Below are positions 3,576-29,207 of a stretch of 33,939 nt of DNA, one piece after another (positions within the stretch are counted from its first letter, which is position 1; every line of letters begins with the position of its first letter). Where the stretch lies: assembly GCA_016206365.1 (NCBI GenBank), contig JACQRR010000053.1:1-33939 (forward strand), read 5' to 3'. A model generated the notes under the pieces. It ran no database searches, was not told the origin of the DNA, and was given only the letters and a program-made list of their open reading frames with translations. This stretch comes from Candidatus Roizmanbacteria bacterium. Lineage in GTDB: Bacteria > Patescibacteriota > Microgenomatia > UBA1406 > GWC2-37-13. Made by a program: the position numbers and the translations under genes.

Positions 3576-3600
3576 GTTGGCGGTTATTTCACCTCCAACC
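3575..3600. terminator. Hairpin spanning the stop codons of two convergent genes (possible bidirectional terminator)
   Basis: ggttggcgg (3575-3583) pairs with cctccaacc (3592-3600) with one mismatch around an 8-nt loop. There is no clear U-tract. Confidence 0.3.
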
Positions 3601-6600: not shown

Positions 6601-9600
6601 TCATATCGACCGTAACAACTTCTACCCGGGATTCTTTTCCTGATTGATTAGCGTAACTTATAGGCCTCAACCCTGCATATAGACCAGCTTTATGAACAAT
6701 AAATTCATGTGATGCGGCAATCGATTGATTGCTAATATCATTGACTGTTGCCTCGATAACCATTCGCTGGCTTGTTTTTTGCTTGCTTATATCAAGTGGT
6801 ATAGTGATCTCTAGGTCGCCTTTCTCGTTTGTCTTCCCTTTTCCTTCAGTAACTTTTTCTCCTGAGAAATAACTCTGCCCTGAGTAATCCCACCAAGGCC
6901 TTGACCAATAAGAGTCTGGGTCGCCAAATTCAAAGCGCCAATCTTTATCCCATTGGATAGAGTAGTCTTGCGTTTGCAGCGTCCAGGTCAGAGGAGCGTC
7001 TGTGACTGGAGAGCCGAAATAATAGGAAGAATTTATGGCAATAGTAGCATTTTCACCTTGTAAATAGGTATCCTTTGACGGTTTGACTGTTACGGCCAAA
7101 TCGGGTCGTTTATATTCTTCTACCTGAAATTGTTGCGTGAAAGAATTTCCCTGAAATGTTGATCCGACTTGATAATATCCCAGATTTGCGTCTTTGCTTA
7201 AAATAAACTCTCCTGAAAATGAGCCAAATGTATTGATGGATAAGGATTGCATTGATACTGATTTGTTTTGAGCATCATTTATCGTTACTGAAATCTTCTC
7301 GCCAGGTCGAATATTCTCATAGTCTCCATCGTTATCTTTTCGAATGACTCCCTTAAAGTAGACTTTTTGGCCCGGCCTATAGATGGGCCGATCTAACGTG
7401 AGAAAAAGCTTATAATTTTCTTTTATGTCATACTCTTTGTATTCATCGGGATTGTAGTAGGACGGAAGGCCAAAATCAGATCGATCAATCCCTTGACTCC
7501 AGATATCTGCCGCTATAACTATATCGTCATCTTTTTGGCCAAAGACAAAAAGATTATTTTTTTGAAATAAGTCGACGTCCTTCATAAATACGCCGTCATT
7601 ATTTGTATTCCCTTGAGTAAGCATCTTTCCCGAACTATCCGTTAACTGAATATTCATGTTTGAAATTACATCGTTTGAAGACTGATCTACAGCCCAAGTG
7701 AAAATTTGTTTGGCGCTTTTTTTTACTGTCAAAGTCGATTTGCTTACGATCATGATCATGTTATCATGCGCTCCTTGTGGTATACGCAGATCAAGAAAGT
7801 AAAATCCTGCCGGCAATTTATCGCCGCTATTTGTGGTAACTTTTGTAACTACATGCACAGGGGTGTTTAAGTCTGCTCCATAAGTTTCACCCCAGCTTCG
7901 AATCTTTTCGAGTCTGCCCGCGTCGTAACTCTGCCAATTTTGGCAACCATAATTATTGTTACCGCATTGATTTTCATACCTTCTTCTGTAAAGATCGAGA
8001 AACTCCTCCTTTTTTAATTTGTAGAGAGAGAAGTCAACTCTGTTTGCATTGACAACCTGGGCAACGATGCGGGGGACGACGTTCTGATTAAACGACCCAA
8101 AATAAGTATCTTGAGGGAAAATATTAACCGATGGTTTGTAGGGAGCCGTAGTGAAGGAAAAAGTATATGATGCGTCTAAAGGCACTCCATACTGATCTTT
8201 AACGGCGTGTCCTATCGTGATCGTATAAGTTTTAGATCTTCCCAGATATGTTCCAATTGATAAAGTGTTCGTGTTTTCATAACTTGAAAAATAAAAATTA
8301 GGTTTTGTCTCCGGCTGCGGATCGATCAAAACATTATTTTCAAATGATTCCTCATCCATGGGAGTTCTAAAAACGACTCGGACGCTATGTTCTTCTGAAA
8401 TATTTCTATCTCCATTTTTTGGTGTCGAAGAGACAACCTGAGGTTTTGGAGCAACAGTAAAACTCCAAGTATAACCTGTTTCCATTCCGTTTGGCCCGTC
8501 TGCGCTTTGGACTCCTTGATCAAGCTGTACTCGATAGGATTTTTCTCTCAAAAGAGATGAGGAGGGGTAAAATCCAAAGATCCTTCCGTTTAGCGCAACA
8601 CGGCCGGGTACTCGATTTCCTGAAGCGTCAAGAAGATGGAACTTTTCGATAATTGAGCTTTCATTGACATTTTGGTTAAATATAGCAGAGACAGAGGCCG
8701 TGGGAGAAGCAAACTGCTCATTTTGTAAGGGGCTTACAGCTTCGACATGGGGTCGTTCGCTCGAGAACTCCCAACGATATACATTTTGTAATTTTCCCCC
8801 ATCTTGAGACTGAAGTTCTGGTAGGCTGACGCTATAGGTCGTAGCCTTTTTAAAGGGTTCTGATGGACGGTATTGATAGGCAGTCGTCCCCAGCCATCTA
8901 CCTTCGCCTTCGATCTCTGGATTAAGGCTAAATGCTGGTTTTTTAATTGCGCTATTTGTAGCGGTGGTCAAAGCAATCATCGGGCGATCGAAAACTACCG
9001 TAATAGGAGTGAAGTCTTCCAGCGCTTCATTTTGAGGCGAAGCCAGTACTACCTTTGGATTTCCCAGCGTTTCAAAAGTGATCGTTTTATTACCAATGAG
9101 CGGTACAAAAAAATTTGACAAAACTACTCCTCTAAACGAGATTTTATAGCTGCTTGCTCTACCAAGATTATTTTTGGGAGTAAATACAAGTTTTTGATTG
9201 CCTTCCCAGCTAAAATTGCCAGAAATATTGGGTTTGATGTCAAGGCTGCGTTCAGCTAAGGATTTTATAACGCCTTTGTTAAAGATAATCTCTATTTTTG
9301 AGTCTAATGGCGCTTCAGAGCTCATATTACCTGGGAAAGTTGTTATTATTCTAGGAGGCGTAAAAAGAGGACCAAACTTAATCAATAAAAAAAGTCCAAC
9401 AATGACAACCACTGGTTTTTTAACCATCTGCCAGCGTTTTGGCTTGTCCGCTTGTTTAAACTCTTGCTGCCAACTGAGAAAACGTGTACTCAACTTTGTA
9501 TAGTTTTCTTTCGTATGATGATGTAGGATAGGAAGATTAGCTTCCAGGTATTGTTTTAATCTAGCGATATTTTCTTGTATAGCGGTAAAAAAATTCTTAA

Positions 9601-9613
9601 GATACTTACTCAT
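3584..9613 (-). CDS. Bacterial alpha-2-macroglobulin family protein (YfhM/ECAM-like), thioester-containing, N-terminally membrane-anchored
   Basis: 2009-aa ORF. The thioester motif DYPYYCAEQ is encoded at 5009..5020. There are repeated Ig-like/MG-type beta-rich segments and a C-terminal receptor-binding-like end. A single TM segment (VVVIVGLFLLIKFGPLF) follows about 65 cytoplasmic residues. It lies directly downstream of pbpC. Confidence 0.9.
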   Translation of the reverse strand: MSKYLKNFFTAIQENIARLKQYLEANLPILHHHTKENYTKLSTRFLSWQQEFKQADKPKRWQMVKKPVVVIVGLFLLIKFGPLFTPPRIITTFPGNMSSEAPLDSKIEIIFNKGVIKSLAERSLDIKPNISGNFSWEGNQKLVFTPKNNLGRASSYKISFRGVVLSNFFVPLIGNKTITFETLGNPKVVLASPQNEALEDFTPITVVFDRPMIALTTATNSAIKKPAFSLNPEIEGEGRWLGTTAYQYRPSEPFKKATTYSVSLPELQSQDGGKLQNVYRWEFSSERPHVEAVSPLQNEQFASPTASVSAIFNQNVNESSIIEKFHLLDASGNRVPGRVALNGRIFGFYPSSSLLREKSYRVQLDQGVQSADGPNGMETGYTWSFTVAPKPQVVSSTPKNGDRNISEEHSVRVVFRTPMDEESFENNVLIDPQPETKPNFYFSSYENTNTLSIGTYLGRSKTYTITIGHAVKDQYGVPLDASYTFSFTTAPYKPSVNIFPQDTYFGSFNQNVVPRIVAQVVNANRVDFSLYKLKKEEFLDLYRRRYENQCGNNNYGCQNWQSYDAGRLEKIRSWGETYGADLNTPVHVVTKVTTNSGDKLPAGFYFLDLRIPQGAHDNMIMIVSKSTLTVKKSAKQIFTWAVDQSSNDVISNMNIQLTDSSGKMLTQGNTNNDGVFMKDVDLFQKNNLFVFGQKDDDIVIAADIWSQGIDRSDFGLPSYYNPDEYKEYDIKENYKLFLTLDRPIYRPGQKVYFKGVIRKDNDGDYENIRPGEKISVTINDAQNKSVSMQSLSINTFGSFSGEFILSKDANLGYYQVGSTFQGNSFTQQFQVEEYKRPDLAVTVKPSKDTYLQGENATIAINSSYYFGSPVTDAPLTWTLQTQDYSIQWDKDWRFEFGDPDSYWSRPWWDYSGQSYFSGEKVTEGKGKTNEKGDLEITIPLDISKQKTSQRMVIEATVNDISNQSIAASHEFIVHKAGLYAGLRPISYANQSGKESRVEVVTVDMKGKEVANTPVSIEFYKRTWETIREKNPDDGLFYYTSKPNDTLVSSTTVTTDSLGRATASFTPSEGGTYKVVGKVSDKNGNQNLSGSFLWVSGLGFSAARENNDRIVVVTDKRDYLVGENLSVFVASPYASDSAKTLLTAERGSVLDYKVVDIDNTSNNFSMSIPPKYTPNVFIGAVLIRGGNQVKKPAEFKIGYAEIKVTDKKQQVDVRITTDKKRYKPKETLRATIETKDLLGHPISAELAVGLVDKAVWDLSLVELPDIYKTFYQPRNLEVETSQLLTISLDRVNANTDLGAKGGSGGGGDGGSDTSRRDFPETAYWNPSLKTDKDGKASVEIKLPDNLTTWRLAAIANSQDASFGSKVSEVITSRDVLIRPFLPRFLSVGDQAKLGAIIVNTSGEDQTITAKIEEEGIQITDGKTKQQVLADGAQTKITWSTIAKNAASAKIKLSVEGSDKRLRDALEMTLPIKSYSIPEVVATAGEAKDTAQEKIVLPKAVDTTQGQTSIVFSPSLGSASFNALAYLFDYPYYCAEQITSRFMPAVFVQRILKNAKIDKNGLIDSRQLEQVINDSIQRLNNQQHPDGGWGWWQENESDPFLTAYAFLGLFEAKKDKFTVADQTLQRAQTYLVNQLARGKKEVSLNTQAYILYVLRGRGINMSSYAANLFERRFELSLESRAYLVLAMKDISGMGDRAKRLFNELISLAKKTATTTHWEEPKRDYYFMGSNTSTTASILEALVGFDKKNPLIPEVVRYLMSIRTDNHWASTRDTAAVIKAISSQLLSRADQRVDENYRLALNGKILKEGKFTKDDLFKLEQYVISISQLNIGGENKLQISKSGQGNLYYDVNLKYYLPFSEIKPLEQGIVVVREFVDSQGKTLPMDTIFENTEVWVRLIIVTPEERRFVVIEDILPAGLESVNESLKNVSALNKESPSLKEKGNQLLYFGHKEYHDDRTTLFANYLPPGVYEVTYRVRATTPGRYHHPPAQAYQMYIPDISGHSEGGWLEVK

Positions 9614-9682: not shown

Positions 9683-12097
9683 TTAATCGTCAGCCTGGTA
9701 TTCTACAACCGAAAAATTTACCTGTTCGCTCTCTATTTTCTGCCCACTCAACGATTCACCTACAGATTTAACTCTATGGTTGCCCAATTTTGGCTTCCAA
9801 GAAACTTTGAAGGGAAACTCTGTGGTTGATTGCAGAAAAACCCCATCGACATACCAGCTTACTTTAGCAATATTGGAAGATGCATTGACTTCAAAGACTA
9901 TAGCTTGATTATTTACCAAGAGAGGCGCGGATTCAAAAACAGTTTTTTCTCTTGGATAAGTTATCTCTATGAATGGCTGGATCGAACCAATTTGTCCGCC
10001 TTTACAAAGTGGTGAAGATTGCTGGGGAATAACTGCTTGATTGTTTTCTACCGCCCAGGTATAGACTTGTGGTGGATAATCAAGAAATATTTTTTTTTCG
10101 ACAAACTCTTTCGGGCAGGACTCTCCAGCCAATAGGTTGTTTCTTTTATCGATCTTTATTTTCCTATGCAAATTTGAAAATTCTTTAGGTTCGCTACCTT
10201 CAATAAAAATTTCCGAATTTTTTTCCGGGCATAAAGAGTCCGGCAGTTTGCCTGATAAAGCGCATATCTCTGCTTCTTTTATTCTGTCTGGCCGTACGAA
10301 TTGACTTTTTGCTTTACCCTTGAGAAATTCTTCAAAGAATTGATTCCAGATTGGAGCCGCGCCTACAACCCCGGTAATTTCTTTCAGCGGATGATTATCA
10401 TTATTTCCTACCCAGACTCCTACCGTATAGTCAGGCGTGTAGCCTACTGTCCAATTGTCGTGCCAATCTGTGGTCGTGCCTGTTTTTACAGCAGCGGGAT
10501 GAGTAAGTACTAAAGGATTTTTCTCGCCAAACCCTGAAATTCGAGCCTTTGGATCGGAAAGAATATCAGAAATTAAATAGGCAACCTGTTGGCTATTTTT
10601 TCCTAATACCGATCTACCTCGTTCAAATTTGTGCGTAAATAAAGTCTCCCTATCATCAGTCGTAATACTTTCGATTGCATAAAAAGATTTGTATACCCCC
10701 CCTCTGGCAAAACTGGCAAAGACATTGGCTAGATCAATCAGCCTAACTTCACCGCCCCCAAGAGTCAGTGCTAAATCATACCGGTCTTCTTGATTTAATG
10801 TAGTGACGCCTAAATCTTTTGCCAGCTTGAGAAAATTTTTTATCCCCACGCGATTCAACATTTCTACCGCTGGTAAGTTGAATGACGACGCCAACGCTTC
10901 TCGAACCAGAACTAAACCATGAAATCGGCCATCATAGTTATTTGGGGCGAATCCTTCTCCTTTTTTAGTCTTATAAACCTTCTTCACATCGTAAATAAGG
11001 GTCGCAGGCGTATATCCTTGCATAAAAGCCGCGGCATAAGTAACAGGTTTTAAAGCCGAGCCTGGTTGTCTAGGAGCAGTTGCCATGTTGACCTGGCCAG
11101 AATTTTTGCCAGCAAAATAGTCCACCCCTCCGAGCATAACGAGGATTTCTCCTGTATCATTTTTAATTAGAACGAGAGAAGCGTTAGAGAGGGCGTGTTC
11201 ATCGCGTAATTTGTCCACCCAGAGTTTGGCTATTTCTTCGCTTAAGAGGAATGAGGGATAGTCAAGAGTAGTATAGATATTTATGCCTTGCTGATTTTTT
11301 ATTCTTAGTCGATCTGTCTCTTGGAGTACATAATGAACAAAATGAGGAGCCTTGATGTCAGGTTGTTCTTGTCTTAAATTCAGCCTTTCTTGTTTAGCCT
11401 CTCCCGTCCTTTCTTTTGAGATAAATTTATTCTTTAGCGTCAAATCTAGAACTTGTTCTTGGGCTCTTTTTGCCTCTTTAAAATTGCTAAATGGATTACG
11501 ATTTTCTGGTGAAGCAATCAGCCCAGTAAGAAAGGCGCTCTCGGCAAGCGAAAGCTGGCTCACGTCTTTAGCGAAGTAGGCATTTGAGGCTGATTGTATG
11601 CCGTAGGCGAGATTTCCATAATAAACCTCGTTTAGATATTTTGTTAAAATCTCTTTTTTTGGATATATTATATTTAACCTTAAGGCAATAAGAATCTCTC
11701 TGATTTTTCTAATAATCTTTCTGGGTGGATTTTTCTGCGGAGAGATAATTGCGATTCTTGCTAACTGTTGCGTGATAGTACTTGCACCGCTGACGATCTT
11801 ACCTTTTTGGACATTTTGAGATAATGCTCTTATCAAGGCTTTAAAATCAACGCCGCTATTTGTCCAGAACGAATTGTCTTCTGAAGCAATTGTTGCATCG
11901 ATCAGATGTTTTGGCAGTTGATCAAAAGTGACAGGAATTTTCTTACCCACCTTTCCTGCAGATTCGTAAAGAAGAACTTTATTCCTGTCCCAAATTTTCA
12001 TTGTTCCGAATTCTCTGATATTGGGTTCTGTCCAAAAAAACAAAAAAATAAAGAAACAGAGCAAGAAAATAGCCGACGCCTTCTTCATATTATTCAT
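9683..12097 (-). CDS. pbpC: Bifunctional penicillin-binding protein 1C (GT51 transglycosylase + transpeptidase + PbpC C-terminal domain)
   Basis: 804-aa ORF. GT51 motifs are ASEDNSFWTNSGVD and GASTITQQL. Transpeptidase motifs are SALK (SxxK), SSFN (SxN) and KTGTT. There is an N-terminal TM anchor and a C-terminal beta domain (VSWYVDG...NHRV). A 69-nt gap separates it from the A2M gene on the same strand. Confidence 0.85.
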   Translation of the reverse strand: MNNMKKASAIFLLCFFIFLFFWTEPNIREFGTMKIWDRNKVLLYESAGKVGKKIPVTFDQLPKHLIDATIASEDNSFWTNSGVDFKALIRALSQNVQKGKIVSGASTITQQLARIAIISPQKNPPRKIIRKIREILIALRLNIIYPKKEILTKYLNEVYYGNLAYGIQSASNAYFAKDVSQLSLAESAFLTGLIASPENRNPFSNFKEAKRAQEQVLDLTLKNKFISKERTGEAKQERLNLRQEQPDIKAPHFVHYVLQETDRLRIKNQQGINIYTTLDYPSFLLSEEIAKLWVDKLRDEHALSNASLVLIKNDTGEILVMLGGVDYFAGKNSGQVNMATAPRQPGSALKPVTYAAAFMQGYTPATLIYDVKKVYKTKKGEGFAPNNYDGRFHGLVLVREALASSFNLPAVEMLNRVGIKNFLKLAKDLGVTTLNQEDRYDLALTLGGGEVRLIDLANVFASFARGGVYKSFYAIESITTDDRETLFTHKFERGRSVLGKNSQQVAYLISDILSDPKARISGFGEKNPLVLTHPAAVKTGTTTDWHDNWTVGYTPDYTVGVWVGNNDNHPLKEITGVVGAAPIWNQFFEEFLKGKAKSQFVRPDRIKEAEICALSGKLPDSLCPEKNSEIFIEGSEPKEFSNLHRKIKIDKRNNLLAGESCPKEFVEKKIFLDYPPQVYTWAVENNQAVIPQQSSPLCKGGQIGSIQPFIEITYPREKTVFESAPLLVNNQAIVFEVNASSNIAKVSWYVDGVFLQSTTEFPFKVSWKPKLGNHRVKSVGESLSGQKIESEQVNFSVVEYQADD

Positions 12098-13671: not shown

Positions 13672-13859
13672 ACGAATTTCGCAGTTGTCATTCTGAGCAC
13701 ATTCGACAAGCTCAGTGTAAACTCCGCGAAGAATCTCTCGCGAATGCGAGTTCTGAAAGGACGTCTGACGTCCTGAAACAAGTTCAGAGATCCTTCGTCG
13801 TGGAATTTATCCCGATGAAAATCGGGACTCCTCAGGATGACAGGAAGTGCGAAACTCGT
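13672..13859. repeat. Roughly 188-nt highly structured inverted-repeat element (MITE-like or structured RNA)
   Basis: The terminal arm acgaatttcgcagttgtcattctgag (13672-13697) pairs with ctcaggatgacaggaagtgcgaaactcgt (13831-13859). Internal hairpins are tgagc/gctca, cgcga/tcgcg, aggacg-tctga-cgtcct and cccgat-gaaa-atcggg. There is no ORF. Confidence 0.5.
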
Positions 13860-13863
13860 ATAG

Positions 13864-14738
13864 TAGGGTAAGTCTTGAAAACAGCCACTAAAAACGATAG
13901 AATTAGATTATTGTGAGAAGATATTTTTGTCCAAGATGTGATAACAAGGTTCTATACAACGTTAGGAGAGGTAAAAAACGATGTAAAAAGTGTCTTTACG
14001 AGTGGAAACAAAAGATCGCCGGATTTAGTTTAACAAGAAAAGAATGGCAGAAAATTCTTTTTTGGTTTGTCTTAGATCACGATATCAGAACAGTCGTTGA
14101 ACAAACGAAGATTAGTAAGTATTCAGTTGAAAAAACTCTTAAAATAACGAGACAAATAATGGCGAGAGATGTTCCCGGAATATTTGAAGGCACAGTTGAA
14201 GTCGATGAAACATATTTAGGCGGTCAAAAGAAAAATAAAATAAAAAACAGTTACTAAAGGAAAAACTTGAAAGGAGAGAATCAAAACGAGGTTTTGGAAC
14301 AACTAAACAGCCTGTTTTTGGTATTTTAACCCGTCAGGGCAAGGTATTTGCTGAATTAGTCAATGATACAGAAGCTAAAGATTTGTTACCGATCATAACT
14401 AAAAAAGTAAAGATTGGTTCTCAAATCTGTTCAGACACGGCAAAAGCGTATACAGGTTTAGCGGCTAAAGGATACGTTCATCGAACTGTTGAACACGGTG
14501 AGAAAGAATATGTTGATAAAAATAATAAAAGCAACCACATAAACGGACTTGAAGGATTTTGGGGATATCTTAAAAGGAAGCTAGCTGCTAAAGGTGGAAT
14601 TAAAAGACAATACTTACATTTGTTTTTAGGAGAATATGTTTGGAGGTATAATTATAGAGAACTATCAAAAGAAAAACAGATCGATCGATTATTAAATTTA
14701 GTTATTAATTTTAGTGGCTAAAATCAGGACTTACCCTA
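13864..14738 (+). mobile_element. IS1595-family (ISXO2-like) insertion sequence
   Basis: 27-bp terminal inverted repeats: tagggtaagtcttgaaaacagccacta (13864-13890) against the reverse complement of 14712-14738, 22/27 identical. They enclose a transposase with an N-terminal zinc ribbon (CPRCDN..CKKC) and an ISXO2-like DDE region (VEVDETYLGG ... CSDTAKAY ... HINGLEGFW). Confidence 0.8.
13913..14721 (+). pseudogene. IS1595-family transposase split over two frames (13913..14257, and a -1 frame open from 14239 to 14721)
   Basis: Frame 0 stops at 14255-14257. The -1 frame continues with KKQLLKEKLERRESKRGFGTTKQPVFGILTRQGKV, as expected for ISXO2-like transposases. The frames overlap in an A-tract that contains an in-phase A_AAA_AAC heptamer (14242-14248). 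Confidence 0.75.
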
Positions 14739-14861
14739 AGATAAGTATAGATGGGACTCAGACGAAGTAAAAAGTTAATGATTGGAGCTTAATTATGCTC
14801 TAAATCGTTTTTAAGAAGTCAGAGTTAGGTTACCAGTGCCTAGTTCCCAAAAGTTTATTTA

Positions 14862-15054
14862 GTGGACAAGCTTCAAAATAATTTAAACCAGATTGAGGAG
14901 TATATTTGGAGGTGGTATCATACAATTAAGAATCTTAACTTTAAGAATGTGGCAAGCACTGGTTGAGGATTTCCGAACAGCAAACTGGGCTCAACTGGTA
15001 CCTTATCCAGAGATAGTTTATCAGAAAACTCACCAATTTCTTCAGTCAAGTTGA
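14862..15054 (+). repeat. Repeat unit A: mini-ORF F1 (14862..14966, GTG start, 34 aa) overlapping mini-ORF F2 (14947..15054, 35 aa, +1 frame)
   Basis: F1 is VDKLQNNLNQIEEYIWRWYHTIKNLNFKNVASTG. F2 is MWQALVEDFRTANWAQLVPYPEIVYQKTHQFLQSS. Homologous copies lie at 30996..31200(-), 32244..32348(-) and 17415..17593. Confidence 0.6.
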
Positions 15055-15102
15055 CTTGTTGGAACTTATGATTCGGAACAATTAGTTATTCCTTGTTTTG
15101 TC

Positions 15103-17376
15103 TTATAAAGTAGTTAGTTCATCTAATCCAATACACCTTCTTAACCATCTCATATTCCAGTATCCCAACCCTTTTTCAATTTGATCGAGATCTTTAATCC
15201 TTTCGGAGTGGGCGAATTTGTCTCGGATAGCTGCATAAAACGTGAAGGCAGTTGATACAATTTCCTTGTCTTTTACAAAACTCCTTTCAAACTGTACCCA
15301 ATTGCTTTTTTTAATAATCATATCTTTTAGATGTGATGTGCCTGCAAATCTCAACTTTTCTTCATTTGGAATTAATTCAAATTCTTTCCAAGGAATTTTT
15401 GATTTATCCTTTTCTATGATTTCTTTTATTCTATCTTTCGTCTCTGAAGGAATACCCTTTTCCCACCATTCTTTTCCAAACAATGATTTTAACCCATCCA
15501 CAATAAAGTCTTTCATCTTTACCTCTGTATCATCTATTAAGTCTTTAATCCTTTGATCAGTTTCATTATCAGGCACACCAGGAGTCCATCTTCCTTTTTT
15601 CCATAATTCAATACCGAAATGTGTTCTTTCTTTAAGATCCCACAGCAATCTTTGTGTATTCTCAACAATAAGTTCCCTGCTTGTACCACCGCTTATTTCA
15701 TTTCTTTTTTCTTGAGTCATGTTCCTAATTTTTTCTATAACTGATTCAAGGATTTCTGCTGTTTTTTTATTAAATTTGTCTTTATTTTTTGAGAAATAAA
15801 TACTTTTATCTCCAAATAAATTAAAGTATTTCAAAAGTTGCCTGAGAATGTTTAATAGTATTCGGATTCCTACATTTGAGCAAAGCAACCCTTCATCAGC
15901 TTTTTCCCAATCTTCAAGATATAACTTTGAGATTGTATTGAGATATTCTTTTATTACCTCAAATGCAGTATCTACACTATTGTCATAATTTTCATCGAAT
16001 AAAAGATCCTCTGTTTTCCTTATAAGCCTATTTTCGTTAATAGCAATACAAATTCTCGTTAACGATAGGTGTGCTTTTTTTTGATTATCTTTAGATTGTG
16101 ATGGTAGTTTAATAAACTGAAATAGTGGAGAATCTTTATCAGAATTTAAATTTTTAGATATTTGCGAAATTGTCCATAGTTCTTTCTGTTTTGTGTCAGT
16201 AGAGTCTTTATAAATATCTGAATACAGATCCCATAAAAGATCAGCACTTATTGGTTTTTGCTCTTTATTTATGTCTACGAACAACTTTGCTTGATCCTTT
16301 ACTGCTATGTTGTCAAAAGCTAATACCGGAATAAGTGCATCCTCTGATTTGCCTGAATTTAAATAACCATATAAACGGTGTTGTCCGTCAATTATCCAAG
16401 CACTGCCATATTGCCTTGGTAAAGTTAGCGTGCCTAGTACAATATCTCCTACTGTAGTTTTCGTTTCGAAGGTTGGATTAGTCGTAAAATTCATGATAAT
16501 GTTATTCGCAAAGTAACCTCCACCTTTGACATACTCCTTAATACTCTCGAGTTTAGCTTTATTTAACATTCTTTGATAGGTATATCTTATTGCATCTGGG
16601 TTTGCTTCTTCTCTCCTGTGAATATAGGCTATTCCACTTAATAATTTTTCAGGTTGAACAACAAAATAATAGTATTTTTTATCGCCTTTACCCCCGCGTA
16701 TTGCTGGCACCTGAATTGTCTCGAGAAGATTTTTTCTATTTCTAAAAAGGATCGAATACATTATGACTTTAGCATAATTTCCATATTGTTCTGTCAAAGT
16801 CATATATGATTGTGTTTCCTTATCTGTCCAAAGAAAGAAGTTTTTTCCAATATTTTCTTTAGCTAATTTGACATTATTTTCAGGCAAAGCAATATTTTTA
16901 GTTATAAGGAAAAATATAGGCCGATAATGTTTTTGGTAATGCTCCCATAATGAATTAATTACTTCCACTCTTGTATTTAATATTTCATGAATATCTTTAG
17001 ATAAGTTCTTTGTAGTAGGTTTTTCTGCAGATTTGCATTCGACTAAACAAATGCTGTTTTCGTCTTTTGCAAATACATCAATCTGTCTTTGATTAGTTCC
17101 TATGCCGATCTTTAAATGTCGATCTTCATTCATTTCTTTAAACCCCATTTTCTTAAAAAGTAGCCATATTTCATCCTCAAATAATTCATCAGGGGGCTTA
17201 TTTTTGAAGATTCTTAGGGTTTTCTCATACTCTTTCTTTATTATCCAATTCTGTTCTTTATACTTTAATGCGAGGGGCTTATCTACCGTTTCTTCTATTG
17301 TTAATTTTGCTTTTAATTTCGCAACCTTCTCTAGATCGCTGTTCTTAACTAAAACACCGGAAACGTCATTAGACAT
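15103..17376 (-). CDS. Three-module protein: N-terminal PD-(D/E)xK nuclease-like, central DGQHR (DndB/ParB-like) domain, C-terminal Swt1-like HEPN (Rx4H)
   Basis: 757-aa ORF. IDVFAKDENSICLVECK (D100, E113, K115; 17032-17079) fits PD-(D/E)xK. YYYFVV...YQR...WIIDGQHRLYG...LFVDINKEQKP (DGQHR codons start at 16389) fits the DGQHR/DndB family. The C-terminus WWEKGIP...SNWVQFERSF...AAIRDKFAHS (R718..H723; 15208-15225) fits HEPN. Confidence 0.8.
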   Translation of the reverse strand: MSNDVSGVLVKNSDLEKVAKLKAKLTIEETVDKPLALKYKEQNWIIKKEYEKTLRIFKNKPPDELFEDEIWLLFKKMGFKEMNEDRHLKIGIGTNQRQIDVFAKDENSICLVECKSAEKPTTKNLSKDIHEILNTRVEVINSLWEHYQKHYRPIFFLITKNIALPENNVKLAKENIGKNFFLWTDKETQSYMTLTEQYGNYAKVIMYSILFRNRKNLLETIQVPAIRGGKGDKKYYYFVVQPEKLLSGIAYIHRREEANPDAIRYTYQRMLNKAKLESIKEYVKGGGYFANNIIMNFTTNPTFETKTTVGDIVLGTLTLPRQYGSAWIIDGQHRLYGYLNSGKSEDALIPVLAFDNIAVKDQAKLFVDINKEQKPISADLLWDLYSDIYKDSTDTKQKELWTISQISKNLNSDKDSPLFQFIKLPSQSKDNQKKAHLSLTRICIAINENRLIRKTEDLLFDENYDNSVDTAFEVIKEYLNTISKLYLEDWEKADEGLLCSNVGIRILLNILRQLLKYFNLFGDKSIYFSKNKDKFNKKTAEILESVIEKIRNMTQEKRNEISGGTSRELIVENTQRLLWDLKERTHFGIELWKKGRWTPGVPDNETDQRIKDLIDDTEVKMKDFIVDGLKSLFGKEWWEKGIPSETKDRIKEIIEKDKSKIPWKEFELIPNEEKLRFAGTSHLKDMIIKKSNWVQFERSFVKDKEIVSTAFTFYAAIRDKFAHSERIKDLDQIEKGLGYWNMRWLRRCIGLDELTTL

Positions 17377-17414
17377 CCTAATTTGTGTTAAATTGTAAAA
17401 GGTGTCTTATTGTA

Positions 17415-17593
17415 TCAAAAAGTTCCAAACTCATTTCCATCAACCAATTTTGCGAGAATAGCGTCTATTTCGTGAAGTTTCTCAAGGTTTTTGTCCACGA
17501 TGAGATTATATCAAATCTAAATGGGTGGAAATCGTCCAATATCCTGAAGTAGTTTATCAGAAATCTATGCAGTTTCTACATTCGTTCGCCTAG
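17415..17593. repeat. Repeat unit in the DGQHR-gene leader: F1-like mini-ORF on the minus strand (17415..17498) and an F2 copy on the plus strand (17519..17593)
   Basis: The minus strand reads GTGGACAAA... and encodes VDKNLEKLHEIDAILAKLVDGNEFGTF (27 aa), ending 38 nt before the DGQHR ATG. The plus strand encodes KWVEIVQYPEVVYQKSMQFLHSFA, homologous to the F2 tail NWAQLVPYPEIVYQKTHQFLQSS at 14983..15054. Confidence 0.55.
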
Positions 17594-18174
17594 AGACTGT
17601 AAGTGTTTAACTCATTTATGCACTGGATATATTTTTTTTGCAGATTTACATCATGTGAAAGTTGTGAAAAGTACCCCTTTGAATTGTCAAAAATAGCATT
17701 ATATAAATCATCAATAAAATTGCCAACTCCAAAGTTTAAAAAATGTATATTATGTACGATAATAGTCTTCATGTGACTATTTTGTTTTGGACTAACAACC
17801 CAACTGTATATTTCACCTGTTTTTTTATTTAATATCCTAGGTTCGCTTGTATGCATTAGCTTGTGTCTAAAAATATTCACAACTAAACCGCTCTCAAAAA
17901 CAGGATAGTTTAAAAATTTAACCATAAAACCCACCATCCTTTGAGTTTGAGTCCTGTTATCAGAACCTCGTTTAGAAGTTTCATTCCATCCGGCCCAGAG
18001 ACTTGAAAAATAATCTAATCTTGAGAGGCTATACATGATTATTGGAAAAGGGCTGGTTTGAAGATTGGATATCTCGTAATAAGCTCTTTTAAAATCGTTT
18101 CTTAATGATCTAAATCTATCTTCAAAACTTTCCTTAATTTTCTCTAATGACTGCTTATCCATATATAATTCCAC
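17590..18174 (-). CDS. Small hypothetical protein with a HEPN-like Rx4H motif
   Basis: 194-aa ORF with a GTG start. VNIFRHKLMHTSEP (R103..H108; 17851-17868) follows a helical N-terminal region. The architecture resembles the 30374..31024 product. Assignment rests on the motif only. Confidence 0.4.
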   Translation of the reverse strand: MELYMDKQSLEKIKESFEDRFRSLRNDFKRAYYEISNLQTSPFPIIMYSLSRLDYFSSLWAGWNETSKRGSDNRTQTQRMVGFMVKFLNYPVFESGLVVNIFRHKLMHTSEPRILNKKTGEIYSWVVSPKQNSHMKTIIVHNIHFLNFGVGNFIDDLYNAIFDNSKGYFSQLSHDVNLQKKYIQCINELNTYSL

Positions 18175-18332: not shown

Positions 18333-18827
18333 TTATTTACTTTTTGGCATACGAGACATACTTCTATCTCCCCAGATTCTCTGAAAAGATAACTGAGGAT
18401 CATTTTGTGTTCTTGTATTGACAACACCATTTAGACATATCTGTTTTAAAATAGTCCTACTACCTATAAACATATTACCTCTGAAATATTTTTCAAATCC
18501 CACTCTCGAAGTTTGAGGAATAAACTGTCCAGCAGTAGCATCAATGATTAAGTCTTTTTCTGGAGATAAAAGATATTCATGTCCATTTCCATCTTTGTAA
18601 TCGGAAATAACTTTTTCAATTGGCTTTAAAAGTTGTAAACTTAATTTCTTTGCTACTGCAACAGAGGCGGCATAACCACATCTACCGTAAATCTGTTTTG
18701 GATCTCCAGATAATACCCTTTTTCGATAGTGATCTTCTTCTGTTTGGCTTGGGTATTCACTTTCTATAATTGCTAATAGTATGTCTCCATACCCATCTAT
18801 GTCTGGAATTTCATTTTGCTCTATCAC
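18333..18827 (-). CDS. Hypothetical protein, possible papain-fold/transglutaminase-like Cys-His-Asp enzyme
   Basis: 164-aa ORF with a GTG start. GRCGYAAS (C50), GHEYLL (H83) and IIDATAGQF (D96) have spacing typical of transglutaminase-like cysteine peptidases. Assignment rests on the motif only. Confidence 0.35.
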   Translation of the reverse strand: MIEQNEIPDIDGYGDILLAIIESEYPSQTEEDHYRKRVLSGDPKQIYGRCGYAASVAVAKKLSLQLLKPIEKVISDYKDGNGHEYLLSPEKDLIIDATAGQFIPQTSRVGFEKYFRGNMFIGSRTILKQICLNGVVNTRTQNDPQLSFQRIWGDRSMSRMPKSK

Positions 18828-18995: not shown

Positions 18996-19274
18996 CTAAT
19001 CCCGAAGAGGACTTAAGATATTTTTCAAAGTTCTTTTAAGCTCTTCTTTTAATTGCTTGCGACCAAATCCACTCTTCAAAAATTTTTCTCTAGATGATCC
19101 TGAAATGGAAGATAAAATTTTAAGGTGATTATACAGAAATGTTCGTTGCGGAAAATATTTTCCTCCTCTTGCTGAAATAAAAAGGTTAGGATTAAAAAAA
19201 GAAGAAGCAAGACAAATAAATGTTTTAACGATGTTAGAAAAGGTTAGTAAAGACTTAACAAAAAGGTATAGAAA
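18996..19274 (-). pseudogene. Degenerate GIY-YIG family gene remnant (no start codon)
   Basis: The open frame has 92 sense codons between stops and no ATG/GTG/TTG near its 5' end. The C-terminal part, REKFLKSGFGRKQLKEELKRTL, matches the C-terminus of the intact GIY-YIG gene at 22289..22618. The upstream part (ARGGKYF, NPNL) matches only loosely. Confidence 0.55.
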
Positions 19275-20530: not shown

Positions 20531-20923
20531 TTAAGAAATCGAGGAAAGTAATTTTATTATTTTTCTGTCGAATGTAGCAAAATTTTCAATTTTATTCTTT
20601 AACGCGAAAGAAATATTATAACAGTCCTCAAACTCAACAGTAACTTGTCTATAAATTTCTAAGGCTTTATATAAAAGGTCTCTTTCTTCAAGTTTAAGAA
20701 AAGTCATATCCAAAATTCTTTGAATAATATCGATTTTTTCATTTTTGCTGATTTTATAGGTGCTTCCTAAAACCCACATTACCTCAAATATGACAAGAAC
20801 AGAAGTAAGCAATTTTTTTTCACCTTTGGATCCGTCCACAAATAAATCCGTAGCCTTCTTATGTTGCATACTACCATCATCAAGAAGATAGCGCAGGAAA
20901 TAATTTGTATCTACAAATATCAT
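20531..20923 (-). CDS. vapC: PIN-domain toxin (VapC family)
   Basis: 130-aa ORF starting MIFVDTNYFLRYLL with conserved acidic positions (D5, E46-like, D-x near the C-terminus). It overlaps the upstream antitoxin gene by 4 nt. Confidence 0.8.
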   Translation of the reverse strand: MIFVDTNYFLRYLLDDGSMQHKKATDLFVDGSKGEKKLLTSVLVIFEVMWVLGSTYKISKNEKIDIIQRILDMTFLKLEERDLLYKALEIYRQVTVEFEDCYNISFALKNKIENFATFDRKIIKLLSSIS

Positions 20924-21174
20924 TTTTTGTATTTTCTTTTAAAGTGCTCTTTTTTGGATTTTTTGATTATTTTTTCTAATTCTTCGTCAGTTAATTTTTT
21001 AGAAGATTTAATTGCGCCAGCTAAACTGCGTACAAGAACCTCTGCTGGGGTCAACAAAATGCTTTCGCCTTTTTTTTCAGCCAATAGATGATCTCCTTTC
21101 GCAATTCCTAATTCATTAAAAATCTTACTAGGTATAGTAATTTGTCTTTTGCTTGATATCCTTACAGTTTGCAA
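20920..21174 (-). CDS. vapB: AbrB/SpoVT-type antitoxin (VapB-like); start uncertain
   Basis: VRISSKRQITIPSKIFNELGIAKGDHLL is a SpoVT-AbrB swapped-hairpin motif. The track ORF runs to 21279 and would overlap the smpB start on the other strand. TTG at 21174, preceded by tataat, gives an 84-aa product of typical size. Confidence 0.7.
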   Translation of the reverse strand: MQTVRISSKRQITIPSKIFNELGIAKGDHLLAEKKGESILLTPAEVLVRSLAGAIKSSKKLTDEELEKIIKKSKKEHFKRKYKK

Positions 21175-21177
21175 TAT

Positions 21178-21206
21178 AGTAAGGAAATTATATAAAAGTA
21201 AGGAAA
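21178..21206. promoter_or_regulatory. Direct 10-mer repeat in the vapB/smpB divergent region (possible antitoxin operator)
   Basis: agtaaggaaa occurs at 21178-21187 and 21197-21206. A tataat (minus strand) lies between the repeats and the putative vapB start. Confidence 0.3.
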
Positions 21207-21240
21207 CATCTGTCAAGCGCAATTTGATAAAATTGGAATA

Positions 21241-21690
21241 ATGAAAATATTCAATCGTAAATTCCGGCGCGATTATCAAGAAATTGAAAAATATGAAGTT
21301 GGTATTGCCTTGACCGGTGCCGAAGTAAAATCAGTTAGAGCTGGTCGGATCAAACTTGAGGACAGTTTTGTCAAAATTCTGGGTTCAGAGGTATATCTTT
21401 TAAATGCGGAAATTCCTATCTATGAATATGCAAGACCACAAGGCTACGATTTGCGAAGGACGAGAAAATTGCTCCTGCATAAGAGGGAAATTATCCGCTT
21501 AAAAACAAAGCTTGCCTCGGCTGGTAAGTTGACAATCGTGCCTATTGCATGTTATAATAAGGCTAGTTTGATCAAGCTTGAGATAGCTTTGGCCAAAGGC
21601 AGAAGAAGCCCGGAAAAGAAAAAATTGGAGAAGGCCAGAGATGTAAAAAGACAAGAAGAAAGAGAAGCAAAAGAATATTTGAAAAGTTAA
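21241..21690 (+). CDS. smpB: SsrA-binding protein SmpB
   Basis: 149-aa ORF. N-terminus KIFNRKFRRDYQEIEKYEVGIALTGAEVKSVR...KLEDSFV, central RTRKLLLHKREI and a basic C-terminal tail are all characteristic of SmpB. It lies directly upstream of the tmRNA. Confidence 0.93.
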   Translation: MKIFNRKFRRDYQEIEKYEVGIALTGAEVKSVRAGRIKLEDSFVKILGSEVYLLNAEIPIYEYARPQGYDLRRTRKLLLHKREIIRLKTKLASAGKLTIVPIACYNKASLIKLEIALAKGRRSPEKKKLEKARDVKRQEEREAKEYLKS

Positions 21691-21815: not shown

Positions 21816-22211
21816 GGGGATGAAAGGAATCGACGGAATGCATGCACTTTCAAAAATTGGTAGAGCGCACCTGTGCGTTAAACGGAAAAACTTTAATTGC
21901 TGACGAAAGAGATGCAATTGAAGCTTCGAGGTACAGCCGATTTGCTTTTGCGCAAGCACCAGCTTATCAAGCTTACAACTAAGCTTCCTCTGGTTAAGTT
22001 TCCCTTAGTTCAACTTAATTAAGAGATAAACCAATTAAGGTAAGGTTTTATAGGATTCCCGATGGACTATAAAATCGATAAAACCTCATCGGCTTCCCGA
22101 TCAGTTTTGTTTATTTTCTAATCGGGAAAGAGCTAAAAATAATCTATCTCTACCTAAACATTTTTAAAAAGGCCCTTCCGGACCCGGGTTCAACTCCCGG
22201 CATCTCCACCA
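21816..22211 (+). ncRNA. ssrA: tmRNA (ssrA)
   Basis: The 5' end ggggatgaaaggaatcgacgg pairs with the 3' end catctcc + acca. The T-arm is cccgggttcaactcccgg. The 3' segment ggacccgggttcaactcccggcatctccacca closely resembles canonical tmRNA 3' ends. It is adjacent to smpB. Coordinates are +/-1 nt. Confidence 0.92.
22192..22210 (+). repeat. attL-like core: the 19 nt of the tmRNA 3' end that are duplicated at 31183..31201
   Basis: aactcccggcatctccacc is identical at both sites in direct orientation. Confidence 0.85.
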
Positions 22212-22288: not shown

Positions 22289-22618
22289 ATGGAAACGTCT
22301 GACGTTTCCGTCGCGTCATACGCGACAGATATAGCTAAATATAAATCTTCAATAAAAGAAAGGTTTTATGTATATATTTTCTACTCACTAAAAGATCATG
22401 GTTTATATATAGGATTCTCCCCAAACCTAAAAGTGCGATTAATTAAACACGCTAAAGGACAGGTAATTTCTACCAAATTAAGAAGACCATTGCAATTAAT
22501 TCACTACGAATACTCTATTAATAAAGCAGACGCCAAAGCACGTGAAGAATTTCTTAAAAGTGGATTTGAAAGACAACAACTAAAAGAAGCTCTAAAAAGA
22601 ACTTTGAAAAAAGTTTGA
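22289..22618 (+). CDS. Small GIY-YIG nuclease family protein
   Basis: 109-aa ORF. FYVYIFYS..GLYIGFSPNLKVRLIKHAKG...AREEFLKSG is the GIY-YIG core. The 25-aa N-terminal extension overlaps two hairpins (22291-22309, 22310-22327), so the start is uncertain. Confidence 0.8.
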   Translation: METSDVSVASYATDIAKYKSSIKERFYVYIFYSLKDHGLYIGFSPNLKVRLIKHAKGQVISTKLRRPLQLIHYEYSINKADAKAREEFLKSGFERQQLKEALKRTLKKV

Positions 22619-23979: not shown

Positions 23980-24231
23980 ATGTCAGTAAACGATATCGTC
24001 AAAAATAAACCTTATCTTGCTTGGTATGTAAAAAATCCCGAAGTTCTTTCAGAACAGTCTGTACTAGAACACGTACTTAATTATGGCGACTGGGAAGATG
24101 TGCAGTTATTTATTAAAATTAAGGGTCAAAAGGAAACGGCTGAATTGTTCAAAAAATCCCTAGCCAATAAAAGAACTAATTATCTTCCAGCAATCAAAAA
24201 TTATTTTATTCGCTATTTTAATTTCTTATGA
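23980..24231 (+). CDS. Small protein, putative cognate antitoxin/partner of the downstream nucleotidyltransferase
   Basis: 83-aa ORF whose stop overlaps the next start (ATGA, 24228-24231). No domain was recognised. The role is inferred from the operon arrangement only. Confidence 0.5.
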   Translation: MSVNDIVKNKPYLAWYVKNPEVLSEQSVLEHVLNYGDWEDVQLFIKIKGQKETAELFKKSLANKRTNYLPAIKNYFIRYFNFL

Positions 24232-24839
24232 AAATCCAGGTCTTAAACGACGATCAAAAAGAATTGCTACCTTTTATTAAGTCCTTTTCATCTGATTTTT
24301 ATCTGGTTGGCGGAACAGCCGTCGCCCTTCATCTCGGCCATCGGAGATCAATTGATTTTGATCTTTTTACCGATAGCTCTTTTGATCCGGTAAAGTTCCG
24401 AAACAGAATAAATTCACTGCAAAAAATCGGGCATACATTTTCTCAAGGCGAAGGCGAACTGACCGTGCTTGTAAGAAATGTTAAGTTAACTTTTTTTCAT
24501 TATCCGTTTAAGATAGAAGGGAAAACGAATTTCGATGATACCATTACCATGCCGGATCTTATAACGCTTGGGTCTATGAAGGCATTTGCTCTAGGCAGAC
24601 GTGCCAAATGGAAAGACTATGTCGATCTATATTTTATTTTAAAAAGATACTCGTTTACTAATTTAATGAATACAACCAAGAATATTTTTAAAAATGAATT
24701 TAACGAAAAACTATTCCGCACGCAACTTGCTTATTTTGACGATATTGATTATTCGGAAACAATTGACTACATGGAAGGATTTAAGAGGAATGACGATGAA
24801 ATTAAAAACTACTTAGAAGAAATAAGCTTATCGAAATAA
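24228..24839 (+). CDS. Nucleotidyltransferase of the AbiEii/AbiGii toxin family (short form)
   Basis: 203-aa ORF. FYLVGGTAVALHLGHRRSIDFDLF matches the GGTAL..R.S.DIDxF signature of AbiEii-type NTases. Confidence 0.7.
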   Translation: MKIQVLNDDQKELLPFIKSFSSDFYLVGGTAVALHLGHRRSIDFDLFTDSSFDPVKFRNRINSLQKIGHTFSQGEGELTVLVRNVKLTFFHYPFKIEGKTNFDDTITMPDLITLGSMKAFALGRRAKWKDYVDLYFILKRYSFTNLMNTTKNIFKNEFNEKLFRTQLAYFDDIDYSETIDYMEGFKRNDDEIKNYLEEISLSK

Positions 24840-28018: not shown

Positions 28019-29206
28019 ATGACCAAAGTTAAAATCAATTTCAGGGGTAAAACTGTATTAATATCTTCTGACGTTTTAAGATGGGCAAGAGAAAGTATTG
28101 GAATGAGTTTAGAGCTTACTGCAAAGAAACTTAAAGTTAATGAAGGGATACTTGCTGACTGGGAAAGAATTACCTCGCCCATTCCTTTAAGTAGATTCAA
28201 ACTATTTTCTAAAGTTTATAAGCGTCCTTCTGCAGTTTTTCTATTGGATAAACCCCCTATTGAAAAACTTCCCTCTGAATTTAGAAGACATATGGAAGAA
28301 AAAAGAGTTGAGTTTACAACTAATACTTTTTTAGCAATAAGAAAAGCAAAAAGAATACAACAGACTTTTCTTGAACTTTCAGATAAAGAAGAAAATCCAT
28401 TCATTAAAAAATTAATAGCTTTTGAGAAATATAATGATCCAGAGCTAGTTGCAAGTAAAGTAGCTATATTACTAGGTCTTGACTATAAGAATATTTTAAA
28501 AACAAAAGACACTTTTACTCAATTAAAAATCTGGAAAAAAATACTTGAGTCCGTAAATATATTGGTTATTGAGCTTAAATTTAATCCCTACGAAGCTCGT
28601 GCGTTTTCTTTATATGATAAATATACTCCATTGATCGTCTTAAGCACGCAAGATCATCCTTATGCTAGAATTTTTTCATTGGCGCATGAACTAGGGCATT
28701 TTATATTCAAGTCAAATGGAATTGATATAGATTCAGATTTCAATCAAAAAAAAGAAGATAATTATTTAGAATACTTTTGTAATTACTTTGCCGGATCCTT
28801 GCTCGTTCCTAAAAATGAATTAGCGGTAATAATTAAAAACAAGGGATTTGATCGTAATAGATTTCAAGAAGAAGATTATTTAAATTCTGTTTTGTTACAG
28901 TTAAGCTCGCAATTTCAAGTGAGCACCCAAGTAATACTCCGTAGACTTTTAATTAATAACTTCATTTCTTCGGACAATTTTACTATTAAACATAAACAAT
29001 TGATTTCAAAAAAACAAATTTACAGAAAACCAATTGGAGCAGGAAATTATTACGTAAATGTGATTAAAAATTTCAGCCATCTATTTATAAGTAAACTACT
29101 TGAAGCACATAACGAAAATAAGATAACTCACTATGACTTGTTAAATTATTTAAATATTAAGAGCGAAAATGTTCCTAAATTAGAATCAAAACTTTTGCAT
29201 TATTGA
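28019..29206 (+). CDS. XRE-type HTH fused to an ImmA/IrrE-family (M78) zinc metallopeptidase
   Basis: 395-aa ORF. The N-terminal LRWARESIGMSLELTAKKLKVNEGILADWER fits an HTH. SLAHELGHFIF is the HEXXH motif in the ImmA/IrrE context. Confidence 0.85.
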   Translation: MTKVKINFRGKTVLISSDVLRWARESIGMSLELTAKKLKVNEGILADWERITSPIPLSRFKLFSKVYKRPSAVFLLDKPPIEKLPSEFRRHMEEKRVEFTTNTFLAIRKAKRIQQTFLELSDKEENPFIKKLIAFEKYNDPELVASKVAILLGLDYKNILKTKDTFTQLKIWKKILESVNILVIELKFNPYEARAFSLYDKYTPLIVLSTQDHPYARIFSLAHELGHFIFKSNGIDIDSDFNQKKEDNYLEYFCNYFAGSLLVPKNELAVIIKNKGFDRNRFQEEDYLNSVLLQLSSQFQVSTQVILRRLLINNFISSDNFTIKHKQLISKKQIYRKPIGAGNYYVNVIKNFSHLFISKLLEAHNENKITHYDLLNYLNIKSENVPKLESKLLHY

Positions 29207-29207
29207 C

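Follow-up and report, generated by a model that had tools for sequence, protein, structure and literature searches.

What does a protein do that joins a predicted nuclease, a DGQHR domain and a predicted RNase in one chain, when the gene that encodes it stands alone? The question is raised by a gene of Candidatus Roizmanbacteria bacterium that lies within a stretch of 33,939 nucleotides (assembly GCA_016206365.1, contig JACQRR010000053.1), which at its full length is called the window below. In a preliminary description, made from the sequence alone, the product was taken for a fusion of a PD-(D/E)xK nuclease, a DGQHR/DndB-like domain and a C-terminal HEPN domain, and was proposed as a candidate single-protein defence effector. 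We have found that the architecture is that of a conserved family and not a chance fusion, and that the relatives of the gene are paired with partners that differ from clade to clade, the window's copy belonging to a small clade in which the partner is missing. The gene and the parts of its product are as follows.

15103-17376, minus strand: complete open reading frame (ORF) of 757 aa with an ATG start, stop codon at 15103-15105, encoding restriction endonuclease (REase), DGQHR and HEPN domains.
16732-17376, minus strand: N-terminal region, aa 1-215, with a predicted PD-(D/E)xK nuclease core at about aa 60-165.
15817-16716, minus strand: DGQHR domain (ParB/Srx fold, DndB/DpdB type), aa 221-520, with Q268-R269, D330-R334 and F366xxxN370.
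15577-15816, minus strand: helical linker region, aa 521-600, defined by the secondary structure of an AlphaFold2 (AF2) model and carrying no family assignment.
15106-15576, minus strand: all-helical C-terminal domain, aa 601-757, assigned as Swt1-like HEPN, with R718-x4-H723 and N692-W693.

All of the motifs quoted in the preliminary description are in place, namely D100, E113-C-K115, D330-G-Q-H-R334, the LFVDINKEQKP block (which holds F366...N370 and Q373), N692-W693 and R718-x4-H723. The three-domain architecture that was built on them stood for the most part: the DGQHR domain was strongly supported, the PD-(D/E)xK domain was supported by motif, topology and fold, and the HEPN domain was supported by family profiles and its Rx4H motif, though not by fold. 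The full-length AF2 model, computed on an alignment, reached a mean predicted local distance difference test score (pLDDT) of 87.5 and a predicted template modelling score (pTM) of 0.73. Sequence searches of the PDB, with the single protein and with a 47-sequence profile, gave nothing meaningful, and a promoter and terminator scan gave a result no better than shuffled sequence.

The central domain was matched by the TIGR03187 model at 148.2 bits against a cutoff of 58.85 (E 3.7e-43), over positions 1-276 of the 276 in the model and aa 225-515 of the protein, and the PADLOC DpdB model matched it at the domain level (E 6e-26). The motifs that define DGQHR domains, the DGQHR pentapeptide, a QR pair and FxxxN, were described previously (PMC4619093), and DGQHR/DGQQR is known from the literature as the nucleoside triphosphate (NTP)-binding motif of ParB-fold NTPases. 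In an alignment of 47 homologues, from which the conservation counts given here are taken, DGQHR, the Q268-R269 pair, F366, N370 and Q373 were all invariant. The Pfam DndB family was found in 42 of the 47 when the members were scanned one by one; it was not reported by the Pfam scan of the window protein itself. ParB-like Foldseek matches of the full-length model were weak, namely PadC (probability 0.80, E 1.0) and SspE (E 0.74), and only for the N-terminal domain did this model yield usable matches.

In the N-terminal region of the AF2 model, E67 lies on helix 62-76 (helix 1), D100 at strand 101-104 (strand 2) and E113-C-K115 on strand 108-122 (strand 3), and the topology, alpha-beta-beta-beta-alpha-beta, is the canonical PD-(D/E)xK arrangement. 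The catalytic residues are conserved at 83-98% (E67 in 46/47, D100 in 43/47, E113 and K115 each in 39/47). When the model was compared with the PDB by Foldseek, it matched the Card1-type nuclease Cdn1 (probability 1.00, E 7e-3), AF1548 (probability 1.00, template modelling score 0.49, root-mean-square deviation 3.5 A over 133 columns) and, more weakly, Nt.BspD6I (probability 0.8). The Pfam family Card1_endonuc matched the N-terminal consensus of the family just under its cutoff (E 7.6e-5), and scattered matches to Hjc, Card1_endonuc, HSDR_N_2 and DpnII, all of them families of the restriction-endonuclease fold, were obtained on the N-terminal domains of individual members among the 47 scanned.

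For the C-terminal domain, HEPN_Swt1 matched 26 of the 47 homologues at E<0.01 (best 1e-6), and the C-terminal consensus of the family passed the model's gathering threshold at 36.9 bits against 27.5 (E 5e-9), with weaker matches to Abi_2 and DUF4145. The PADLOC model PDC-M34B matched 114 residues, aa 618-731, with an E value of 8e-8. R718 is present in 47/47 and H723 in 44/47, with N or D at position 719, and the HEPN R and H were kept in every class of genomic context that is described below, including 28/28 members of the class that carries a Dam methyltransferase. A separate model of aa 601-757 was all-helical, with a pLDDT of 89.1. For HEPN domains joined to REase or ParB nucleases in restriction-modification (R-M) contexts, the role of a second-line RNase was proposed in the 2013 census literature.

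The family is large. The window protein had 1885 matches in a collection of 5.8 billion proteins, and over 100 of the top-ranking ones have lengths of 745-790 aa and cover 98-100% of the query; the best full-length homologues come from Roizmanbacteria, Levybacteria, Woesearchaeota, Nanoarchaeota and Thermoplasmatota, among others. An exhaustive search of 50%-identity representatives gave 2007 proteins at E<=1e-3 and 440 at E<=1e-30, from both Bacteria and Archaea, and a relative is encoded in 435 of the first 600 candidate stretches from GTDB species representatives, which cover many bacterial and archaeal phyla. Throughout, the length is nearly constant at about 750-800 aa. Only about seven full-length-type relatives, with 26-32% identity, were found in phage and viral collections, and the gene is thus not typical of phages.

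The new result here concerns the company that the gene keeps. Neighbouring ORFs were clustered across 86 loci and the recurrent clusters were then annotated, and three partnered arrangements were seen. In the first (class A), the DGQHR-HEPN protein is accompanied by a radical S-adenosylmethionine (radical-SAM) enzyme of about 400 aa; in the second (class B), by a longer radical-SAM enzyme, about 545 aa, together with a GHKL ATPase of some 515 aa, and in many cases by an additional short DGQHR protein, an arrangement also present on the conjugative plasmid pNL1 of Novosphingobium aromaticivorans; and in the third (class C), by a Dam-family N6-adenine DNA methyltransferase (TIGR00571 at 250-282 bits; PADLOC MTase_II, E 5e-88), whose gene in most cases adjoins the end of the DGQHR-HEPN gene directly or overlaps it. 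Counted as non-redundant loci, the partner was Dam in 28, radical-SAM with GHKL in 21, radical-SAM only in 13 and GHKL only in two; 16 loci had none. Taken by partner, a radical-SAM gene was counted in 36 non-redundant loci in all and a GHKL ATPase in 24. The type of partner tracks the protein tree, that is, the partners are clade-specific and co-diversify with the DGQHR-HEPN gene. Since most relatives are thus found in modules of two to four genes with Dam or with radical-SAM, with or without GHKL, the family resembles the nuclease half of R-M-like systems, and the notion of a single-protein effector put forward in the preliminary description holds for the window's own subclade and fails for most of its relatives.

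The radical-SAM partners form one family, with an invariant CxxxCxxC and the Pfam domains B12-binding and Radical_SAM. In five loci (L001, L004, L005, L006 and L091) a gene of this family, of about 400-420 aa, starts within a few bases downstream, and the family was also seen tightly linked in about 30 further loci, for example at L042 10441-12069 and L087 10879-12492. No relative of the radical-SAM partner was found in the PDB, the NCBIfam equivalogs or PADLOC, and the GHKL partner had no PADLOC match. The B12-type radical-SAM family is a candidate new nucleic-acid-modifying enzyme. A further observation concerns the nuclease motif of the partnered proteins: K115 is replaced by Thr (E-C-T) in 20/21 of the radical-SAM plus GHKL proteins, and the Lys is kept in 26/28 of the Dam-paired and 15/17 of the solo proteins, which suggests a DNase chemistry that may be changed or lost alongside the radical-SAM/GHKL module.

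The window's copy has none of these partners. No radical-SAM, Dam or GHKL homologue or remnant was detected in the window by tblastn and hidden Markov model (HMM) searches, and Pfam annotation of the remaining window ORFs showed no DNA methyltransferase. The solo clade comprises five loci, the window and the four closest relatives with usable contigs, at 79% (L007), 75% (L088), 61% (L089) and 58% (L090) identity, in unrelated contexts; around the four others lie toxin-antitoxin (TA) pairs, MazG-like genes, an integrase, a Toprim primase and a Schlafen-type helicase. In L091, at 49% identity, the B12/radical-SAM partner is present again. A neighbour-joining tree groups the five solo genes in a single clade within those that have a radical-SAM partner, from which it follows that the solo state is a secondary loss. 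The solo gene is nonetheless under purifying selection and keeps all of its catalytic motifs, with no decay: the ratio of nonsynonymous to synonymous substitution rates (dN/dS) was 0.30 against L007 and 0.15 against L088, and each domain stayed below 0.43. Among the five loci no small partner or immunity gene is conserved, bar a MazG-like gene in two of them. This encodes a MazG-like nucleotide pyrophosphohydrolase near the solo gene (L088 5731-6078, minus strand; L089 4058-4432, plus strand), the two being 46% identical, and in L089 it lies directly downstream of the solo DGQHR-HEPN gene. Comparison of the window with L007, which is also from Roizmanbacteria, by blastn and tblastx left one shared segment:

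15053-17422: sole segment common to the window and L007, 85.8% nucleotide identity, comprising the gene and about 50 bp on each side.

As the similarity is limited to this segment, the gene behaves as a single-gene cassette, one that is taken into variable or mobile regions with many TA genes.

We therefore favour, with moderate confidence, the reading in which the window protein would be a nuclease that acts by itself, of a restriction-like or abortive-infection kind and under the control of a ParB-like NTPase, within a large uncharacterised conflict (defence) family. The family as a whole would provide the restriction or effector half of R-M-like modules. By analogy with DpdB, SspE and ParB, its DGQHR domain would bind DNA and NTP and work as a switch or a clamp; SspE is known from the literature as a phosphorothioate-sensing NTPase-nuclease in which NTP hydrolysis is coupled to DNA nicking. 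The same domain would signal whether the DNA is marked or unmarked, self or invader, and would allow the N-terminal nuclease to cleave it, and the HEPN domain might supply a second, RNA-directed output of the abortive-infection type. In the partnered relatives the Dam enzyme, and more speculatively the radical-SAM enzyme, would mark self DNA. Because its partner is absent, the solo form would have to use one of three modes: it may be modification-dependent (Type IV-like), it may be triggered by infection, or it may rely on a methylase encoded elsewhere in the genome.

Several points weigh against this reading. A restriction nuclease without a cognate modification should be toxic, and the solo state thus calls for a further assumption; nor need the radical-SAM partner act on DNA. 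Enrichment in defence islands was assessed on a small number of annotated neighbourhoods, truncated contigs make up some of the no-partner loci that lie outside the window's clade, and the tree is a simple neighbour-joining tree with no support values. For the window protein alone, the Pfam matches to HSDR_N_2 and Mrr_cat were sub-threshold (E 0.13-0.19), as was HEPN_Swt1 (PF18731), at 16.9 bits against a gathering threshold of 27.5 (E 0.008). The isolated C-terminal model had no significant Foldseek match (best E 1.3 in the PDB and 2.4 in BFVD), and for this reason the HEPN assignment rests on profiles and the conserved Rx4H. The single-protein scores being weak, it is the family-level evidence that rescues both the PD-(D/E)xK and the HEPN assignments.

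A wider reading joins the partners and the solo form, and we put it forward as tentative and, taken whole, rather doubtful. The REase-DGQHR-HEPN proteins would then constitute an undescribed R-M-like class of immunity with an interchangeable self-marking partner, either Dam or a B12 radical-SAM enzyme (with GHKL and the small DGQHR protein) that would install a new DNA modification, and the solo form of the candidate phyla radiation (CPR) would be a derived one that has dropped the marking enzyme, a self-contained NTP-gated dual DNase/RNase that is modification-dependent or triggered by infection.

It may be asked instead whether the gene serves a host at all, or is a selfish, addictive or homing-type nuclease gene whose cassette persists through its own nuclease activity and brings the host no benefit. 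The gene alone is common to the window and L007, it lies among TA modules, integrase and primase genes occur near its relatives, and the family occurs on a conjugative plasmid. It is also flanked by repeat copies and by a decayed insertion sequence of the IS1595 family:

14983-15047, plus strand: repeat copy 1, encoding ...NWAQLVPYPEIVYQKTHQFLQSS then stop.
17519-17583, plus strand: repeat copy 2, encoding KWVEIVQYPEVVYQKSMQFLHSFA then stop, 71% identical to copy 1.
13859-14743, plus strand: decayed IS1595-family element, just downstream of the gene (DDE_Tnp_IS1595, E 3.6e-17).

The repeats, which had been noted at the outset as bracketing the gene, are real and non-random, a 65-nt imperfect direct repeat whose two copies, read on the plus strand, code for one and the same short C-terminal peptide; they may be a mini-gene, a decayed gene end or a recombination site. 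The repeated element spans 14956-15051 and 17504-17590 in the window (plus strand) and 1334-1420 and 3662-3733 in L007 (minus strand), and its peptide of about 25 aa follows the pattern DFRTA[ND]W..[LI]V.YPE[LIV]V[YI][QE]K...FL, then stop, with no copy inside a long intact gene. The transposase of the IS1595 element is split into ORFs at 13913-14257 and 14383-14721, between 35-nt inverted repeats that are 80% complementary, and a short echo of the IS1595 zinc-ribbon coding sequence (FCPRCD) occurs at 17488-17506. Against a selfish cassette, the segment shared with L007 holds no transposase or integrase, and no cognate antitoxin or immunity gene is conserved beside the solo genes. L007 has two further repeat copies away from the solo gene, one of them within a 40-aa mini-ORF, and because of these extra copies the flanking repeats are not demonstrable cassette ends or att sites. 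The pairing with a methylase in relatives is moreover the classic R-M pattern, though R-M systems are partly selfish themselves. On this evidence we regard a purely selfish gene as unlikely.

We think it similarly improbable that the protein is an accessory or regulator of the DndB/DpdB kind, a DNA-binding NTPase that serves a modification pathway (phosphorothioation, 7-deazaguanine or other) and in which the flanking domains only bind. The strongest match of the protein is to the DGQHR domain that it shares with these proteins, whose models match it at the domain level; DndB is a regulator and DpdB a DNA-stimulated ATPase that helps DpdA, according to the literature; relatives of the window gene adjoin modification-type enzymes; and the nuclease Lys has become Thr in the radical-SAM plus GHKL clade. 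The equivalog models nevertheless fail badly. Identity with DndB was rejected at 67.4 against a cutoff of 450 for TIGR04172 (DGQHR_dnd_1), with no Dnd-type genes among the window ORFs, and identity with DpdB at 87.6 against a cutoff of 300 for NF041060, with no TGT-like neighbour. The link to DNA phosphorothioation that the preliminary description had mentioned is thus not supported, there being no dnd, dpd or other modification genes in the window. Conservation of the PD-(D/E)xK and Rx4H residues under purifying selection in the solo clade would be unexpected for domains that only bind, and the class B radical-SAM operon already has a dedicated short DGQHR protein. Finally, that the gene is a functionless orphan decaying after loss of its radical-SAM partner, possibly when the neighbouring IS1595 element inserted, is suggested by the absence of the partner and by the position of the decayed element where the partner would be, and is largely refuted, and in our view very improbable, since the ORF is intact with all motifs present, the five solo-clade genes are full-length in unrelated contexts at 58-79% identity with dN/dS of 0.15-0.30, and L007 lacks both the IS1595 element and the partner.

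The surroundings of the gene support a defence-type context. The TA-like and abortive infection (Abi)-like neighbours that were claimed in the preliminary description proved to be real, being VapBC, an AbiEii-like protein and ImmA/IrrE with DUF4411, and the guanine-plus-cytosine content falls from about 0.40 to about 0.31-0.34 across 14-21 kb. The features upstream of the gene are:

17590-18174 and 18333-18827: two ORFs without family match.
20531-21279: VapBC.
21241-21690: smpB.
21816-22211, plus strand: tmRNA gene (Rfam, 104 bits), with a long predicted tag, ADERDAIEASRYSRFAFAQAPAYQAYN.
22289-22618: GIY-YIG gene, after the tmRNA gene.
24228-24839, plus strand: short AbiEii-like nucleotidyltransferase, with no evident AbiEi partner.
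28019-29681, plus strand: ImmA/IrrE (Peptidase_M78)-HTH, followed immediately by a DUF4411 protein.

The ORF at 17590-18174, of 194 aa, lies directly upstream of the DGQHR-HEPN gene on the same (minus) strand and carries an Rx4H-like string, FRHKLMHTSEP, and from this string its product could be another HEPN-like protein; the ORF is not conserved beside the other solo homologues. A tmRNA-linked genomic island was considered and rejected, as the tmRNA gene is 4.4 kb off, with SmpB, VapBC and others between and its 3' end facing away, and no evidence of ssrA integration was seen. A 68-nt inverted repeat, 79% complementary, at 19021-19088 and 22544-22611, has its arms 3.5 kb apart, and these enclose a membrane-protein gene, VapBC, SmpB, the tmRNA gene and most of the GIY-YIG gene. 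On the other side of the solo gene a 2009-aa alpha-2-macroglobulin-like protein (3584-9613, minus strand), with Big_5, MG2, A2M, TED and bMG10 domains, adjoins a class A penicillin-binding protein at 9683-12097, a pairing that is known in other bacteria and here occurs in a genome that is probably of the CPR.

SspE, GmrSD and BrxU exemplify the fusions of a ParB-fold NTPase with a nuclease, an emerging class of immune enzymes that sense the state of DNA. If the favoured reading is true, the present family would add to this class a widespread version, with hundreds of 50%-identity clusters, that has a different nuclease and an extra RNase arm. Its clade-specific pairing with Dam or with a B12-type radical-SAM enzyme hints, in a way that can be tested, at a new enzymatic DNA modification for self-marking, and we consider the radical-SAM pairing the lead of greatest interest. 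At 2.3 kb the solo form is compact, and it occurs in CPR bacteria and DPANN archaea with tiny genomes; it makes one ask what keeps a restriction-like nuclease safe when its partner is gone, and offers a single-gene experimental system.

How, then, does the protein compare with what is known? It had been proposed that the three-module combination belongs to no named system, and this was borne out to the extent that no named or tested system matches it; the combination itself was already recorded in the censuses of 2013. Anantharaman et al. (2013, PMC3710099) give, as a one-line architecture under the Swt1-like HEPN family, a fusion listed as "ParB (Saro_3948)", and Makarova et al. (2013, PMC3632139) list fusions of COG1479/DndB to HEPN or to PD-(D/E)xK. 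Over 696 residues the window protein can be aligned (E 1e-80) with a 769-aa DGQHR protein encoded on pNL1 of N. aromaticivorans; the plasmid-borne protein has a C-terminal Rx4H of its own, and the present family is very probably that of the Saro_3948 entry, although the locus tag was not confirmed. The ParB fold and the Swt1-type HEPN are shared with the entry, which mentions no N-terminal REase, partners or function. In the library of papers searched there was no description of the three-domain protein, of the pairing with Dam or with radical-SAM/GHKL, or of experiments, and a 2025 survey of ParB CTPases mentions neither HEPN nor DGQHR. In PADLOC the window protein gave only domain-level matches to DpdB and PDC-M34B, and a PDC-M34 system would be incomplete here, with a match to the B component only and no PDC-M34A among the neighbours.

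With DndB and DpdB the protein shares the DGQHR domain, and its relatives likewise lie near DNA-modification loci. It differs from them in being about twice as long, with a nuclease and a HEPN domain added, in lacking DndCDE or DpdA neighbours, and in that the partners of its family are Dam or radical-SAM enzymes. The Card1/Can2/Cdn1- and Hjc/Mrr-type nucleases are the best fold and profile matches of its N-terminal domain, and the E...D...ExK motif and the topology agree; the likeness is at the level of fold and clan only, with about 10-17% identity, and the window protein has no CARF sensor domain.

SspE, GmrSD and BrxU likewise carry a ParB-fold NTPase with a DGQxR motif fused to a nuclease in one polypeptide. 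In the literature they sense the modification state of DNA, and act alone (Type IV) or with a modification module. The window protein departs from them in having DGQHR in place of DGQQR, an N-terminal PD-(D/E)xK nuclease in place of a C-terminal HNH/DUF1524 and an extra HEPN domain. No DUF262 or DUF1524 match was obtained for it in Pfam, NCBIfam or PADLOC, nor a significant sequence match to SspE in the PDB search, and an enzyme of the SspE/GmrSD/BrxU type is excluded by the DGQHR motif and the lack of HNH/DUF1524. The likeness to Type II R-M systems with a Dam-family methyltransferase (DpnII/MboI type) is one of gene order, in that 28 relatives abut or overlap a Dam-family methyltransferase gene as R-M operons do, and one family member also gave a weak DpnII match. 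From these systems the window copy is set apart by the absence of a methyltransferase, and by NTPase and HEPN domains that are foreign to classical Type II enzymes.

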